IMG/VR virus record: IMGVR_UViG_2740892258_000010
From: a virus
Lineage: Duplodnaviria; Heunggongvirae; Uroviricota; Caudoviricetes
Length of the DNA stretch: 21,071 bases
Direction: 5' to 3' (one strand)
The notes beneath the pieces are model-generated. The model searched no databases, was not told where the DNA came from, and was given only the letters and a program-made list of their open reading frames with translations. Made by a program: the position numbers and the translations under genes. This document shows positions 4,993 through 18,696 of this stretch, piece after piece; within the stretch, counting starts at the first letter, position 1; every line of letters starts with the position of its first letter.

Positions 4993-5125
4993 TTTTTGGG
5001 ACTCCTGGCTGATTAAGTATGTCGATAAGGCGTTTCCATCCGTCACGTAATTTACGGGTGATTCGTTCAAGTAAAGATTCGGAAGGGCAGCCAGCAACAG
5101 GCCACCCTGCAATGGCATATTGCAT
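4961..5125 (-). CDS. cIII: CIII (FtsH inhibitor, stabiliser of CII)
   Basis: Not in the ORF track (54 aa). Manual translation gives [54 protein letters not shown], matching lambda CIII. 3' end overlaps the kil start as in lambda. Confidence 0.85.
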   Translation of the reverse strand: MQYAIAGWPVAGCPSESLLERITRKLRDGWKRLIDILNQPGVPKNGSNNYGYPD

Positions 5126-5197
5126 GGTGTGCTCCTTATTTATACATAACGAAAAACGCCTCGAGTGAAGCGTAATTGGTATGCGGTAACGCCGCGC

Positions 5198-10272: not shown

Positions 10273-11177
10273 ATGACAAATACAGCAAAAATACTCAACT
10301 TCTGCAGAGGTAACTTTGCCAAACAGGAGCGTAATGTGGCAGATCTCGATGATGGTTACGCCAGACTATCAAATATGCTGCTTGAGGCTTATTCAGGCGC
10401 AGATCTGACCAAGCGACAGTTTAAAGTGCTGCTTGCCATTCTGCGTAAAACCTATGGATGGAATAAACCAATGGACAGAATCACCGATTCTCAACTTAGC
10501 GAGATTACAAAGTTACCCGTCAAACGGTGCAATGAAGCCAAGTTAGAACTCGTCAGAATGAATATTATCAAGCAGCAAGGCGGCATGTTTGGACCAAATA
10601 AAAACATCTCAGAATGGTGTATCCCTCAAAACGAGGGAAAATCCCCTAAAACAATAAAAACATCTCAGAATGGTGTATCCCTCAAAACGAGGGAAAATCC
10701 CCTAAAACGAGGGATAAAACATCCCTCAAATTGGGGGATTGCTATCCCTCAAAACAGGGGGACACAAAAGACACTATTACAAAAGAAAAAAGAAAAGATT
10801 ATTCGTCAGAGAATTCTGGCGAATCCTCTGACCAGCCAGAAAACGACCTTTCTGTGGTGAAACCGGATGCTGCAATTCAGAGCGGCAGCAAGTGGGGGAC
10901 AGCAGAAGACCTGACCGCCGCAGAATGGATGTTTGACATGGTGAAGACCATCGCGCCATCAGCCAGAAAACCGAATTTTGCAGGGTGGGCTAACGATATC
11001 CGCCTGATGCGTGAACGTGACGGACGTAACCATCGCGACATGTGTGTACTGTTCCGCTGGGCATGCCAGGACAACTTCTGGTCCGGTAACGTGCTGAGCC
11101 CGGCCAAACTCCGCGACAAGTGGACCCAGCTCGAAATCAACCGTAACAAGCAACAGGCAGGCTTTAGCTTAATTTAA
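10273..11177 (+). pseudogene. O: Replication initiator O, frameshifted in the ori iterons and altered at the C-terminus
   Basis: N-terminal ORF (10273..10860) and C-terminal ORF (10731..11177) both match lambda O but are in different frames. The frame change coincides with a 56-bp tandem duplication. The C-terminus ends ...NRNKQQAGFSLI instead of continuing as in lambda. Confidence 0.85.
10597..10708. repeat. Perfect 56-bp tandem duplication within the ori iteron array
   Basis: 10597-10652 and 10653-10708 are identical by direct reading (aataaaaacatctcagaatggtgtatccctcaaaacgagggaaaatcccctaaaac). 56 is not a multiple of 3. Confidence 0.9.
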
Positions 11178-11350
11178 ACAAACTAAAAATAACATCGGAA
11201 ATTATTAACTGGTTATTTGTTGAAGTTTTCTTATGCATTTGTGGTGGTGTTTTGAACACTCGGTGGCATTCTCACAAATATCATTTAGTAGTTTACGTAC
11301 GTAAAAAATTGGTTATGCTGTTAAGAGTGGTTACTTCGTCACACAGCTTA

Positions 11351-11380
11351 AACCCGCCGTCGAGCGGGTTTTTCCATTTT
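11351..11380 (+). terminator. Intrinsic terminator, tR'-like, upstream of the lysis cassette
   Basis: ACCCGC-cgtcga-GCGGGT stem-loop followed by TTTTTCCATTTTTT. A promoter-like region lies about 40-60 nt upstream (TATGCT preceded by TTGG). Confidence 0.55.
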
Positions 11381-11511
11381 TTGAGTCTCGATATTAGCTG
11401 ATAACCCAATACCTGAGTTATTCACTGACTCCGAATCTGTTACGTTTCTGCCTTTATTGCGATACGTAGTATCCCCTTAATTTACACCCGCTTTGTCTGC
11501 GAGGTGGGGTT

Positions 11512-11727
11512 ATGAAATCCATGGATAAGTTAACAACGGGTGTCGCCTATGGTACCTCAGCAGGTAGTGCCGGGTACTGGTTTTTACAGTTGCTCGATAA
11601 AGTCACGCCCTCACAGTGGGCGGCAATAGGTGTGCTGGGTAGCCTGGTATTTGGCCTGCTGACGTACCTGACAAACCTTTATTTCAAGATTAAAGAAGAT
11701 AAGCGCAAGGCTGCGAGAGGTGAATAA
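11512..11727 (+). CDS. S: Class II holin (pinholin), phage-21 S-like
   Basis: 71-aa ORF with dual-start motif MKSMDK, two hydrophobic segments and a basic C-terminus. Close to phage 21 S by recollection. Confidence 0.85.
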
Positions 11728-12224
11728 TGCCTCCATCATTACGAAAAGCCGTTGCTGCTGCTATTGGTGGCGGAGCAATTGCTATAGCATCAGTGTTAAT
11801 CACTGGCCCAAGTGGTAACGATGGTCTGGAAGGTGTCAGCTACATACCATACAAAGATATTGTTGGTGTATGGACTGTATGTCACGGGCATACAGGAAAA
11901 GACATCATGCTCGGTAAAACGTATACCAAAGCAGAATGCAAAGCCCTCCTGAATAAAGACCTTGCCACGGTCGCCAGACAAATTAACCCGTACATCAAAG
12001 TCGATATACCGGAAACAATGCGCGGCGCTCTTTACTCATTCGTTTACAACGTGGGTGCTGGCAATTTCAGAACATCGACGCTTCTTCGCAAAATAAACCA
12101 GGGCGATATCAAAGGCGCATGTGATCAGCTACGTCGCTGGACATATGCTGGCGGTAAGCAATGGAAAGGTCTCATGACTCGTCGTGAGATTGAGCGTGAA
12201 ATCTGTTTGTGGGGTCAGCAATGA
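11727..12224 (+). CDS. R: SAR endolysin (lysozyme with N-terminal signal-anchor-release domain)
   Basis: 165-aa ORF with a Gly/Ala-rich weakly hydrophobic N-terminus ([20 protein letters not shown]) typical of SAR endolysins. Start overlaps the holin stop. Confidence 0.85.
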
Positions 12225-12439
12225 ACAGAGTAACCGCGATTATCTCCGCTCTGGTTATCTGCATCATCGTCTGCCTGTCATGGGCTGTTAATCATTACCG
12301 TGATAACGCCATTACCTACAAAGCCCAGCGCGACAAAAATGCCAGAGAACTGACGCTGGCGAACGCGGTAATTACTGACATACAGATGCGTCAGCGTGAT
12401 GTTGCTGCGCTCGATGCAAAATACACGAAGGAGTTAGCT
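12221..12439 (+). pseudogene. Rz: Rz (i-spanin) 5' fragment
   Basis: [49 protein letters not shown]...DAKYTKELA matches the lambda Rz N-terminal half; similarity stops at about 12439 although the ORF runs on to 12580. Confidence 0.7.
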
Positions 12440-13087
12440 TCATTCTCATTGTTGCTATATCAGCCATCACTGAAAGCCTCAACGCATAATCGGCTGCTTA
12501 GGATAGCCAACCTCAGGTGCTGCATTTGCATAGTGCAATCTCCCCTTACTTATCCGGAGGCAATTGCAATATCTCTGTGAACTTACACTGTGTATCATCA
12601 GGTTATTATGTGAGCTGGTAAATCAGATTTTGCATGGACTGAAATGATGCTGTTATTTAGGGACAAAGAACCGACTTTTTCTCTTGCCTCCTCGCCAGTA
12701 ATGATTAATGGGAATGCTTCCTCTGGGGAGGAGGACAGTAGAAAAAAGAACCCGCCAGCAAAAATATTGGGGATGAACAGCTTTCGCTACTCAGGTTGTT
12801 GGCGGGTAAATTTCCTCATGAAATAAGAATGCTACGCGCTCTTTTTAATGAAAATGATAATCACTGTCAACTAATTGCGCATATTTTCTTCATACATGAT
12901 TGATAAAGGTGATTCAGACTATCAGTGTTTTGCTGATGGCCTTTTTGTCTTTAGAAAACACCAGCCAGGCTGGTTGGTTCAGTTAAGCTTTCAGCTTCGA
13001 GAATTTTATGAAAGCTATTGATTTGTTAAAATAAATCACAGTCTGGTGACTGCAAAAGTTAAACGAGAAATCAAAAGGTGGCCCAAA

Positions 13088-13320
13088 TCTGAAAATGAAG
13101 CTCTGCGTGATGATGTTGCCGCTGGTCGTCGTCGGTTGCATATCAGATCAATCTGCCCATCCCCGCGTGAAGCCACCACCGCCTCGGGCGTGGATAATGC
13201 AGCCCCCCCGACTGGCAGACATCGCTGAACAGGATTATTTCCTCCCTCAGAGAGAGGCTTATCACTATGCAAAAACAACTGTAGGGAGCCCAGAAGTATA
13301 TTAATGAACAGTGCAGATGA
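13088..13320 (+). pseudogene. Rz 3' fragment with embedded Rz1 (o-spanin) remnant, both damaged
   Basis: Rz-frame homology resumes (ENEALRDDVAAGRRRLHI...) and an Rz1-like lipoprotein start is present (MKLCVMMLPLVVVGC). A frameshift relative to lambda lies in the C-run near 13200-13210, and an in-frame TAG precedes the Rz C-terminal codons. Confidence 0.6.
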
Positions 13321-13341
13321 GCTCCCCATATCGATGGGCAA

Positions 13342-13635
13342 CTATTGTGAGCAATATACCCGGGCTTCCAGCGGAGTATAGATGCCAAAAGTGATAAAAC
13401 CGAGCAATCCATTTACGAATGTTTGCTGAGTTTCTGTTTTAACAACATTTTCTGCACCGCCACAAATTTTGGCTGCATCAACAGTTTTCTCTTGTCCAAT
13501 TCCCGAAACGAAGAAATGATGAGTGATGGTTTCCTTTGGTGTTACTGCTGTCGGTTTGTTTCCAACAGTAAACGTCTGTTGAGCACATCCTGTAATAAGC
13601 ATTGCCAGAGCGGCAGAAAATAACATTTTTTTCAT
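13342..13635 (-). CDS. bor: Bor lipoprotein (serum-resistance, lysogenic conversion)
   Basis: 97-aa protein from the second Met (MKKMLFSAALAMLITGCAQQTFTV...ARVYCSQ) with a lipobox (LITGC). Matches lambda Bor. The ORF track starts 5 codons earlier. Confidence 0.9.
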   Translation of the reverse strand: MKKMLFSAALAMLITGCAQQTFTVGNKPTAVTPKETITHHFFVSGIGQEKTVDAAKICGGAENVVKTETQQTFVNGLLGFITFGIYTPLEARVYCSQ

Positions 13636-13810
13636 CTTATTATCCTGCATTGTTAAAAACGGCAGAATCCTATGTGATAATAATTAAACGATAGCTAAAT
13701 GAACGAAAATTAAAAGTATAAAAGTGGTTACTCAGACTTGGTTGATCCTACCCACGTAATATGGACACAGGCCTAAGCGAGGTTCTTGTTTTCAAATTGT
13801 TCCGGACTGA

Positions 13811-14635
13811 GGCCGCCACACCAACTGTGCCGCCGCCACCGATCCGAAACACGAATTTAATTACCAGCAGGCGGTTGAGCGCCTTCCTGGTGAAGATCCG
13901 GCTCAGCTGAACGACCCGGCCTACCGTCGTCTGCGTATCATTACCGATAACCTCAAACAGGAAGAGCACGCCATTGTCCAGGTGGAAGAAATGCAGGCGG
14001 TGAATGCCGTGCTGTATGGCAAATACACCATGGAAGGGGATCAGTTTGATACTGTCGAGGTGGATTTCGGGCGCTCTGAAGGAAATAACATTGAGCAGGC
14101 TGACGGTAAAAAATGGTCTGAGCAGGACCGTGATACGTTTGATCCGACGCATGATATTGACCTCTACTGCGATCAGGCCAGCGGCCTTGTGAATATCGCC
14201 ATTATGGACGGTACGGTCTGGCGTCTGCTGAATGGCTTTAAGCTGTTCCGCGAAAAACTGGATACCCGTCGCGGCTCAAATTCACAACTCGAAACGGCAG
14301 TGAAAGATCTGGGCGCAGTGGTGTCCTTCAAGGGGTATTACGGCGATCTGGCCATTGTGGTGGCGAAAACGTCTTATATAGCAGAAGACGGTATCGAAAA
14401 ACGTTATCTTCCAGATGGCATGCTGGTTCTGGGGAATACTGCTGCAGATGGGATCCGTTGTTACGGTGCCATTCAGGATGCTCAGGCGTTGTCCGAAGGT
14501 GTGGTGGCCTCTTCCCGTTATCCGAAACACTGGCTGACGGTAGGGGATCCCGCCCGTGAATTTACCATGACGCAGTCCGCGCCGCTGATGGTGTTGCCGG
14601 ACCCGGATGAGTTTGTGGTGGTACAGGTGAAATAA
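13811..14635 (+). pseudogene. E: Major capsid protein E, 3' fragment (5'-truncated)
   Basis: Open frame from the stop at 13808-13810 to 14635 matches the lambda E C-terminal region (...AYRRLRIITDN..VEEMQAVNAVLYGKYTM...LTVGDPAREFTMTQSAPLM...). There is no N-terminal region and no ATG; the first candidate start is a GTG at 13982. Confidence 0.8.
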
Positions 14636-16678: not shown

Positions 16679-16790
16679 GTTTTATGTGAAACCGCCTCCG
16701 GGCGGTTTTATCGTTTATGGAGCATGACGAATGGGTTTTATGTGAAACCGCCTCCGGGCGGTTTTATCGTTTATGGAGCATGACGAATGG
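16679..16790. repeat. Perfect 56-bp tandem duplication spanning the I-J intergenic hairpin and the J start
   Basis: 16679-16734 and 16735-16790 are identical. Each copy carries the AAACCGCC-tccg-GGCGGTTTT hairpin and ATGGGT. The first ATG opens only a 4-codon ORF; the second is the J start. Confidence 0.9.
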
Positions 16791-18677
16791 GTAAAGGCAG
16801 CAGTAAGGGGCATACCCCGCGCGAAGCGAAGGACAACCTGAAATCCACGCAGCTGCTGAGTGTGATTGATGCCATCAGCGAAGGGCCGGTTGAAGGTCCG
16901 GTGGATGGATTAAAAAGCGTGCTGCTGAACAGTACGCCGGTGCTGGACAGTGAGGGGAATACTATAACCCGCAGACGCGGCAATACAGCGGTATCTGGGA
17001 CGGAACGTTTAAGCCAGCATACAGCAACAACATGGCCTGGTGTCTGTGGGATATGCTGACCCATCCGCGCTACGGCATGGGGAAACGTCTTGGTGCGGCT
17101 ATGTCATCGGCCAGAATTGCGACCAGTCGGTGCCGGATGGCTTTGGTGGCACGGAACCGCGTATCACCTGTAATGCCTGGCTGACCACGCAGCGCAAGGC
17201 GTGGGATGTGCTCAGTGATTTCTGCTCGGCGATGCGCTGTATGCCGGTATGGAACGGGCAGACGCTGGGGCGCACTTTGACGGCGACCAGAGCGGCACGG
17301 TGAATGGTGTCACGCCGCCAGCGGTGCAGCACCTGACTGCCGAAGTCACCGCAGACAGCGGGGAATATCAGGTGCTGGCGCGCTGGGACACGCCGAAGGT
17401 GGTGAAGGGGGTGAGCTTTATGCTTCGCCTGACCGTGGCAGCGGATGACGGCAGTGAGCGGCTGGTCAGCACGGCCCGGACGACGGAAACCACATACCGC
17501 TTCATGTACTGGATAGCCGCCAGTATCAATATCAAACCGGGCCATGATTATTATTTTTACATCCGCAGTGTGAACACCGTTGGCAAATCGGCATTTGTGG
17601 AGGCTGTTGGCCAGCCGAGTGATGATGCATCCGGCTATCTGAATTTTTTCAAAGGAGAGATAGGGAAAACCCATCTGGCTCAGGAGTTGTGGACGCAGAT
17701 TGATAACGGTCAGCTTGCGCCTGACCTGGCTGAAATCAGGACGTCCATTACGGGTGTCAGCAATGAAATCACGCAGACCGTCAATAAGAAACTGGAAGAC
17801 CAGAGTGCAGCGATCCAGCAGATACAGAAGGTTCAGGTTGATACAAATAATAACCTGAACAGCATGTGGGCTGAAGCTGCAGCAGATGCAGGACGGACGC
17901 CTTTATATCGCGGGTATTGGTGCCGGTGTTGAGAATACTCCTGACGGTATGCAGAGTCAGGTGCTGCTGGCGGCGGACAGGATTGCGATGATTAATCCTG
18001 CGAATGGCAACACAAAGCCGATGTTTGTTGGGCAGGGCGATCAGATATTCATGAACGAAGTGTTCCTGAAATATCTGACGGCTCCCACCATTACCAGCGG
18101 TGGCAATCCCCCAACGTTTTCACTGACACCTGATGGTCGACTTTCTGCGAAAAATGCGGATATCAGCGGTAACGTGAACGCGAACTCCGGGACGCTCAAC
18201 AACGTCACGATTAATCAGAACTGTCGGATTCTGGGAAAACTGTCAGCTAACCAGATTGAAGGTGATATTGTCAAAACGGTGGGAAAAGCCTTTCCGAGAA
18301 ATGGCAGTTATGCCAGCGGTACAATAACGGTCACTGTGTACGATGACCAGGCTTTTGACCGTCAGATAGTAGTCCCCCCCGTTCTGTTTCGTGGGGGTAA
18401 GCATGAAAACTTCAACAGCAACAACCAACAGTCATACTGGTATTCAACCTGTAAGCTGCAGGTACTGAAGAACGGACAGGAAATCTTTCAGCAACCCGCG
18501 ACGGATGTCAGCAGGGTATTTTCATCAGTCATTGATATGCCTGCCGGACACGGCCATGTCACCCTGACTTTCAATGTTTCTTCATATGGTGCTAATAACT
18601 GGACGCCAACGACCAGTATCAGCGACCTTCTTGTTGTTGTGATGAAGAAATCTACAGCCGGTATCAGTATCAGTTGA
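16787..18677 (+). pseudogene. J: Central tail fibre / host-specificity protein J, broken into four ORFs
   Basis: Successive ORFs 16787..17059, 17040..17303, 17249..17932 and 17886..18677 all carry lambda-J-like segments in different frames, with large internal segments missing relative to lambda J (1132 aa). The C-terminal about 260 aa differ from the lambda LamB-binding end. Confidence 0.8.
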
Positions 18678-18696
18678 ATTTTATAACCCAGATACG

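Follow-up and report, generated by a model that had tools for sequence, protein, structure and literature searches.

The window, i.e. the whole stretch of 21,071 nucleotides analysed here (IMG/VR record IMGVR_UViG_2740892258_000010, Caudoviricetes), contains a lambdoid lysis region in which a holin and an endolysin gene are followed by Rz sequence in two separate parts and by iss (Table 1). Over 11162-12439 the window matches the intact icd prophage of UTI89 at every position (100% identity; UTI89 locus 17397-18674). The last UTI89-type Rz letters stand at 12439 (...AAGGAGTTAGCT), and Rz homology is back at about 13085 (UTI89 locus 18681) with AAATCTGAAAATGAAGCTCTGCGTG..., about 645 bp further on. 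The comparison with UTI89 thus confirms, for the sequence as given, the break in Rz homology noticed in a preliminary description of this DNA. Across the gap about 6 nt of Rz (GATGCG), which contain the start codon of Rz1, are missing, and the identity to UTI89 changes from 100% on the left of the segment to 90% on its right.

Table 1 Features of the lysis region and of the adjoining sequence (positions in the window; contigs A to C are the putative assembly pieces discussed in the text)
Feature	Position	Strand	Basis and remarks
Class II holin	11512-11727		window ORFs
Endolysin	11727-12224		window ORFs
Rz 5' half (N-terminal part of the i-spanin), UTI89 type; end of putative contig A	12221..12438	+	100% identical to UTI89 prophage rzpD; product matches PF03245
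Terminal fragment (150 bp) of a probable IS481-family element; first part of putative contig B	12439..12588	-	transposase start at about 12525, reading leftwards
Lambdoid late-region DNA, normally directly upstream of the class II holin gene (pre-holin DNA)	12589..12946	+	inverted repeat, decayed small ORF, terminator
IS200 left-end relic (about nt 1-143), fused to Rz	12947..13084	+	terminator hairpin, tnpA 5'UTR stem-loop, SD
Decayed Rz 3' part with embedded Rz1, plasmid type	13085..13341	+	Rz1-like ORF 13095-13304
iss (bor homologue, 97 aa), plasmid (ColV) allele	13342..13635	-	PF06291 Lambda_Bor; same sequence as iss WP_000738422.1 on plasmids
IS3 terminus (exactly 101 nt); end of putative contig B	13743..13843		iss/IS3 junction with complete IS3 in seven complete records, e.g. 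pEC244_2
Fragment of major capsid gene E, second lambdoid prophage; start of putative contig C	13844..13900	+	56 nt identity to UTI89-type E gene

The 3' part of Rz shares 90% identity with UTI89 and 100% with the plasmid pEC244_2. A match to PF03245 was found at 13046-13225, and the match of PF06085 (Rz1) to 13095-13301 was weak, with 22 bits under a cutoff of 27.9. The Rz1-like ORF slides into the Rz frame, and on the identical plasmid sequence RefSeq labels Rz as 'incomplete' and Rz1 as 'frameshifted; incomplete'. These labels and the drift in frame bear out the earlier statement that the 3' Rz/Rz1 remnant is decayed. The record contains no complete Rz ORF enclosing a complete ORF for the Rz1 lipoprotein, the halves being separated and the 3' half frameshifted.

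Two further features had been pointed out between the Rz halves. The ORF of 60 amino acids at 12644-12826 is present. Since no Pfam match was obtained for it and indels break it in the homologues, we regard it as no gene. The imperfect inverted repeat is real as well (12750-12761 and 12796-12807, 11/12 complementary, 92%). In the prophage of E. coli E10 and in copies on pathogenicity islands it is a perfect pair of 12-mers, and it is inherited with the phage DNA. With megablast no match of 12440-13087 was detected in 50,697 phage records; the kinship of the segment with phages was seen only via prophages in E. coli genomes, using the search setting for distant matches.

Regarding its composition, three unequal parts of the segment were recognized. 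The first is the end of an insertion element, which in plasmids extends for more than 1 kb further to the left (plasmid locus L001, 11065-12149, 96% identical to the chromosomal copy L003). The probable assignment to the IS481 family was taken from chromosomal copies, as the window itself holds just 150 bp: the product of L003 scored 211.7 bits with the NCBIfam IS481 model NF033577 (cutoff 224) and matched rve domains, and another copy (L016) is annotated as IS481 family transposase. The second part, the pre-holin DNA, is 84.7% identical to the E10 prophage (locus L008, 5001-5368), where the matching stretch stops some 30 nt short of the holin gene. The final 67 nt of the pre-holin DNA are 88% identical to the spacer between stxB and the holin gene of an Stx1d prophage, and it closes with a predicted intrinsic-terminator hairpin with T run at 12919-12946. 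An ORF of 63 amino acids annotated in the E10 prophage has lost its ATG in the window and is frameshifted there; a Pfam search with the E10 ORF found nothing.

Three unlike sequences adjoin the pre-holin DNA on the left within about 3 nt of one position (12589-12593 in the window, about 5001 in L005 and about 5001 in L008). On plasmids the neighbour is the IS481-like end, on pathogenicity islands it is an ISL3 fragment, and the E10 prophage has unrelated phage DNA there. The shared left edge could be a boundary of a phage module or a hot spot of insertion.

The third part is the left end of an IS200 element. It is about 75% identical to copies of IS200C, whose tnpA ATG aligns to about 13087 of the window on the same strand. 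On the feature map of IS200 a terminator hairpin is placed at nt 12-34, a 5'UTR stem-loop at nt 69-138 and the art200 start sites at nt 153/154 (PMC4513863). Both structures, nt 12-34 and nt 69-138, and the SD are retained in the relic. The IS200 homology stops at about nt 143-145, at the tnpA start codon, and is then followed by Rz sequence; it closes in CCCAA, and the Rz homology opens at A(A)ATCTGAAAATG. No tnpA (Y1 transposase) ORF was found among the ORFs of the window at the relic. The right end of IS200 is absent, as the window matches the left-end region of IS200C only, and the art200 start sites and promoter lie beyond the fusion point, where they are replaced by Rz sequence.

The preliminary description had proposed a decayed mobile-element fragment, a small RNA or foreign phage DNA as origin of the segment. 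Each of these guesses was right in part: fragments of two mobile elements (IS481-family end and IS200 left end) were found, together with foreign lambdoid DNA and, for the small RNA, with a match to an RNA family (STnc490).

This anatomy bears on the transposition of a small mobile element (IS, MITE or IS200-type) into Rz. The near-clean split of Rz with about 6 nt missing and the IS-derived sequence within the segment would suit such an event. The two IS pieces, however, come from different families, each is either internal or has a single end, and the DNA separating them is ordinary phage sequence; the IS200 relic is devoid of tnpA and of a right end. Terminal inverted repeats were not detected: when the 60 nt at the left end were aligned with the reverse-complemented 60 nt at the right end, the best local score was 8, compared with a shuffle mean of 7.4, and 206 of 500 shuffles scored at least as high. 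Likewise, no target duplication of 3-12 nt was found; instead, the mentioned 6 nt of Rz are missing. Furthermore, more than 600 plasmids, as well as pathogenicity islands, carry the block with no Rz 5' half, and the left junction of the block with Rz is restricted to one draft contig (see below). Transposition is refuted by the composite anatomy and by the absence of terminal repeats and of a target duplication, and we consider it hardly conceivable.

The origin of the segment could be assigned by comparison with plasmids. Positions 12438-13843, comprising the relics, 'Rz/Rz1, iss and 101 nt of IS3, are identical in 1,406 of 1,406 nt to plasmid pEC244_2 (NZ_CP019018.1). The plasmid of E. coli ATCC 11775 (NZ_CP033091.2) shows 99.9% identity, with a match running to 13742. 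The 648-nt segment is covered to at least 80% in 620 E. coli records, and among the matches listed every record with 100% identity is a plasmid of 90-175 kb. In every plasmid listed the match begins at position 12438 of the window. The order on the plasmids is iroB, IS481-like pseudogene, pre-holin DNA, IS200 left end, 'Rz, Rz1, iss and IS3. At least one chromosome in the collection carries the cassette as well (H73). By sequence identity, the segment represents the left arm of the known iss cassette carried by virulence plasmids of the ColV type; as DNA it is unremarkable and includes no novel element. Because the junction of iss with a complete IS3 was found in only seven complete records, the plasmid of the isolate is assigned to this iss/IS3 subtype. 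For plasmid and chromosomal alleles of iss a different function in serum resistance was reported (PMC4313913).

The match to a small RNA family deserves separate consideration. The covariance-model scan proposed in the preliminary description was run and yielded Rfam RF01405 (STnc490) on the plus strand at 12956-13077, with 90.8 bits against a gathering threshold of 56, an E value of 4.5e-17 and the stems kept. Two other Rfam matches at E<=1, snoZ223 and sR19, were far under gathering and taken as chance. The art200 RNA is antisense to the IS200 5'UTR (PMC4513863), and RF01405, as the model is constructed, recognizes the IS200 left end in the tnpA-sense orientation. Hence, matches to STnc490 mark IS200 left ends and not necessarily an art200 gene.

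A functional small RNA locus of the STnc490/art200 type or of the 5'UTR type, derived from IS200 and kept beside iss, would be compatible with the plasmid origin of the segment. Its favourable points are the score well over gathering with conserved stems and the known regulation by IS200 5'UTR fragments and art200 (PMC4513863, PMC5435999). In contrast, the art200 start sites and promoter were lost at the fusion with Rz, the Rfam match lies on the tnpA-sense strand and the relic is not conserved beyond its surroundings. Between plasmids and pathogenicity islands the relic is 84% identical, its flanks are 88% and 89% identical, and towards IS200C the relic reaches 75%. With these values a small RNA locus is very unlikely. 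The consensus calculated with RNAalifold from four left-end sequences was weak and partly misaligned (-13.5 kcal/mol) and was not used as evidence.

On the iss-sense (minus) strand two terminator-like hairpins are predicted in the relic, at 12960-12974 and 13036-13055, 290-380 nt downstream of the iss stop. It is speculative, but these hairpins could form the end of the iss transcript on ColV plasmids. The IS200 left end is carried 3' of iss in every ColV-type cassette and is present in the older copies on pathogenicity islands, too. A co-option of the relic, either with the bidirectional hairpin at 12958-12980 and the antisense hairpin at 13036-13055 ending or insulating the iss transcript or with the 5'UTR-like stem-loop yielding an Hfq-binding regulatory RNA of a virulence plasmid, is regarded as unlikely. 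Most likely, the 650 bp do nothing for lysis and are passenger relics beside iss.

The question remains how plasmid DNA came to lie within Rz in this record. The left junction was looked for in 5,426 complete genomes of E. coli as well as in 72,556 plasmids, and no record covering 12100-13400 was found. The chimeric junction product of 119 amino acids occurs on one contig only, CVOH01000061.1 of the draft assembly GCA_001245225.1, which is 100% identical to the window. A search with the junction peptide in 5.8 billion proteins resulted in just one weak partial match (P0001). In addition, two exact tandem duplications of 56 bp are present in the window, at 10597-10708 and at 16679-16790.

In de Bruijn assemblies neighbouring nodes share k-1 bases, and a unique contig extends into a repeat by k-1 nt. 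Both duplications are equally long, which is better explained by k-1 overlaps of contigs (k=57) that were left unmerged than by a biological process. At k=57, the last base distinguishing the copies of a repeat should lie exactly 56 nt from the end of a unique contig. This was examined at the ends of the supposed contigs, with sequences of other strains, and not the second copies of the isolate itself, as partners for the SNPs. At the right end of contig A, the UTI89-type Rz and the Rz of the E10 prophage (L008) differ last at 12382, and 12382+56 gives 12438. For the left end of contig B, the IS481-like sequence of the plasmid was compared with two chromosomal copies (L015, L016): they agree exactly over 12403-12494, the first difference is at 12495, and 12495-56 gives 12439. 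At the right end of contig B, IS3 variants (L013, L014) differ from the plasmid IS3 at 13787, and 13787+56 gives 13843, where IS3 stops. The left end of contig C shows exactly 56 nt identity to the UTI89-type E gene, with the first mismatch at 13900 (13900->13844). Another piece of the window ends 56 nt past its last mismatch, too (17210->17266). The rule held at each end for which a variant was known, these ends being a part of all junctions in the window. Its chance rate was 1 of 1,711 start positions for the E-gene end and 2 of 406 for the Rz end. Furthermore, the order of the pieces follows the start of their alignment on the UTI89 prophage, with A at 17397, the homologous part of B at 18681 and C at 27403. 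This suggests a reference-guided ordering with the gaps closed up, as far as the pipeline can be deduced from its product.

The alternative is a real event of homology-facilitated illegitimate recombination, by which the chromosomal icd prophage would have taken up a fragment of a ColV-type plasmid, from the IS481 end to the IS3 end. The 654-bp homology of 'Rz-iss would be the anchor, and the non-homologous left tail would be left behind as apparent insert in Rz. This was favoured for some time in view of the homology boundary and a seeming microhomology of 2-3 nt; it was dropped, as the right junction shows no microhomology and four ends obey the k-1 rule. The deposition of the record as a single contig, contiguous and with no Ns, speaks for it and counts against a join. 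The same direction is taken by the 2-nt overlap (CT) at the left junction, by the position of the insert at the boundary of homology between donor and recipient and by the presence of the cassette in at least one chromosome (H73). On the other hand, both non-homologous tails must have been retained, and four ends exactly 56 nt from SNPs between repeat copies would need chance. The confinement of the junction to one draft contig and the 56-bp duplications elsewhere in the same record are further points against it. In our opinion, a recombination of this kind is quite unlikely.

Thus, two statements are combined in the reading we prefer and consider highly probable: the DNA is the ColV iss cassette, as established by the plasmid matches, and the apparent split of Rz is an assembly join, which we infer with strong support from the contig ends. 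The window would then be a chain of de Bruijn contigs with k=57, joined without Ns and apparently ordered along a UTI89-like prophage. Contig A would be chromosomal and end inside Rz, where Rz turns identical to a second prophage copy. Contig B would be the unique part of the plasmid cassette, set after A as its 'Rz-iss part aligns there. Because contig A ends where Rz becomes a repeat, the real sequence past 12438 would be the ordinary continuation of Rz. Very probably Rz is uninterrupted in the real genome, and it would read ...GAGTTAGCT continuing with GATGCGAAAGC; the cassette is most likely located on a plasmid. The insert splitting Rz/Rz1, as it was originally described, could therefore not be upheld. 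With no terminal repeats, no target duplication, a left junction in one draft contig and ends lying k-1 = 56 nt from SNPs, it is strongly indicated to be a join in a draft assembly and not a feature of the real genome.

The 3' junction between the IS200 relic and 'Rz has to be distinguished from this join. A truncated 'Rz beside an IS200 relic is real, and it arose on plasmids and pathogenicity islands by deletion and not by insertion into Rz. Since copies on pathogenicity islands with 87% identity carry the junction without the Rz 5' half, it is old and independent of the window. The cassette is recognizable, from the order of its parts, as the wreck of a lambdoid lysis cassette. An IS200-like element had first landed directly behind the pre-holin terminator. 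Then all DNA between its tnpA start codon and a point immediately beyond the start of Rz1, within Rz, was deleted, and with it the body of IS200, both S and R, and the 5' half of Rz. What survives is the pre-holin DNA followed by the left end of IS200, 'Rz/Rz1 and iss, with an IS481-family element now bordering it on the left and IS3 on the right. The sequence beside the plasmid iss can be traced explicitly to pre-holin DNA, an IS200 left end and a deletion that entered Rz at the start of Rz1. The window as the ancestral arrangement from which the plasmids took iss was ruled out, as a longer portion of the IS481-like element is present in the plasmids than in the window.

Further irregularities are present in the rest of the window. 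Compared with the icd prophage of UTI89, apparent deletions were observed at 11161/11162, 15610, 16961/16962, 17266/17267 and 17504/17505. The apparent gaps amount to 5.3 kb in nin-Q-porin, 8 kb from terminase to capsid and 6.2 kb in the tail genes; J is interrupted by three small gaps, with islands of 228-307 nt remaining at 92-99% identity. The duplication at 10597-10708 frameshifts the O replication gene near the ori iterons. Among the apparent deletion sites the k-1 rule was checkable at the 17266 end only. The apparent deletions are probably joins of contigs that mix at least two prophages and not decay of a prophage. The same probably applies to the frameshifts, so that the O-gene duplication, the gaps at nin-Q, terminase-portal and tail and the J islands would be joins, too. 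An Rfam match to Lambda_thermo (cIII thermoregulator) on the minus strand at 5080-5138 (88.5 bits) is expected for a lambdoid cIII gene.

In general, these results call for caution with contigs of public whole-genome assemblies, as this one seems to be a string of short unitigs from at least three replicons or prophages. It would be wrong to see in the window a decayed prophage, a disrupted spanin gene or the plasmid iss allele in a chromosomal copy. The k-1 test is a cheap flag for assembly joins that works without reads.

Compared with known systems, the iss cassettes of virulence plasmids of the ColV/ColBM type, such as pEC244_2 and that of ATCC 11775, are closest to the one in the window, which shares the gene order, the intact iss and, over 12438-13843, 100% identity with pEC244_2. 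In ColV plasmids the IS481-like element continues toward iroB and IS3 is complete, whereas in the window only 150 nt of the former and 101 nt of the latter remain, each adjoining prophage sequence. From IS200 and STnc490 the relic has kept the hairpin, the stem-loop and the SD, but it lacks tnpA, the right end and the art200 promoter and start site. With regard to rzpD/rzoD of the UTI89 icd prophage, the 5' half in the window is 100% and the 3' part 90% identical; unlike in UTI89, the halves derive from different lineages and replicons and the 3' half is frameshifted.

The copies on pathogenicity islands beside the pap operon (MCJCHV-1, 2017C-4173W12) are alike in pre-holin DNA, IS200 left end and 'Rz junction at the mentioned 87% identity. 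In contrast to the cassette, they are flanked by an ISL3 fragment and an IS3-family element and contain no iss; of Rz, only some 90 nt are left, and its 5' half is absent from the vicinity. In these copies (L002 6513-6620; L005 5507-5620) the SD of IS200 (AAGGAGG) and a new ATG open an ORF of 35-37 amino acids in the Rz frame. This ORF is annotated as 'i-spanin Rz' and represents a fusion of the tnpA leader with the Rz tail. Finally, the window resembles de Bruijn assemblies with unmerged k-1 overlaps and repeat-bounded unitigs, both in its 56-bp duplications and in the 56-nt spacing of its ends from SNPs.
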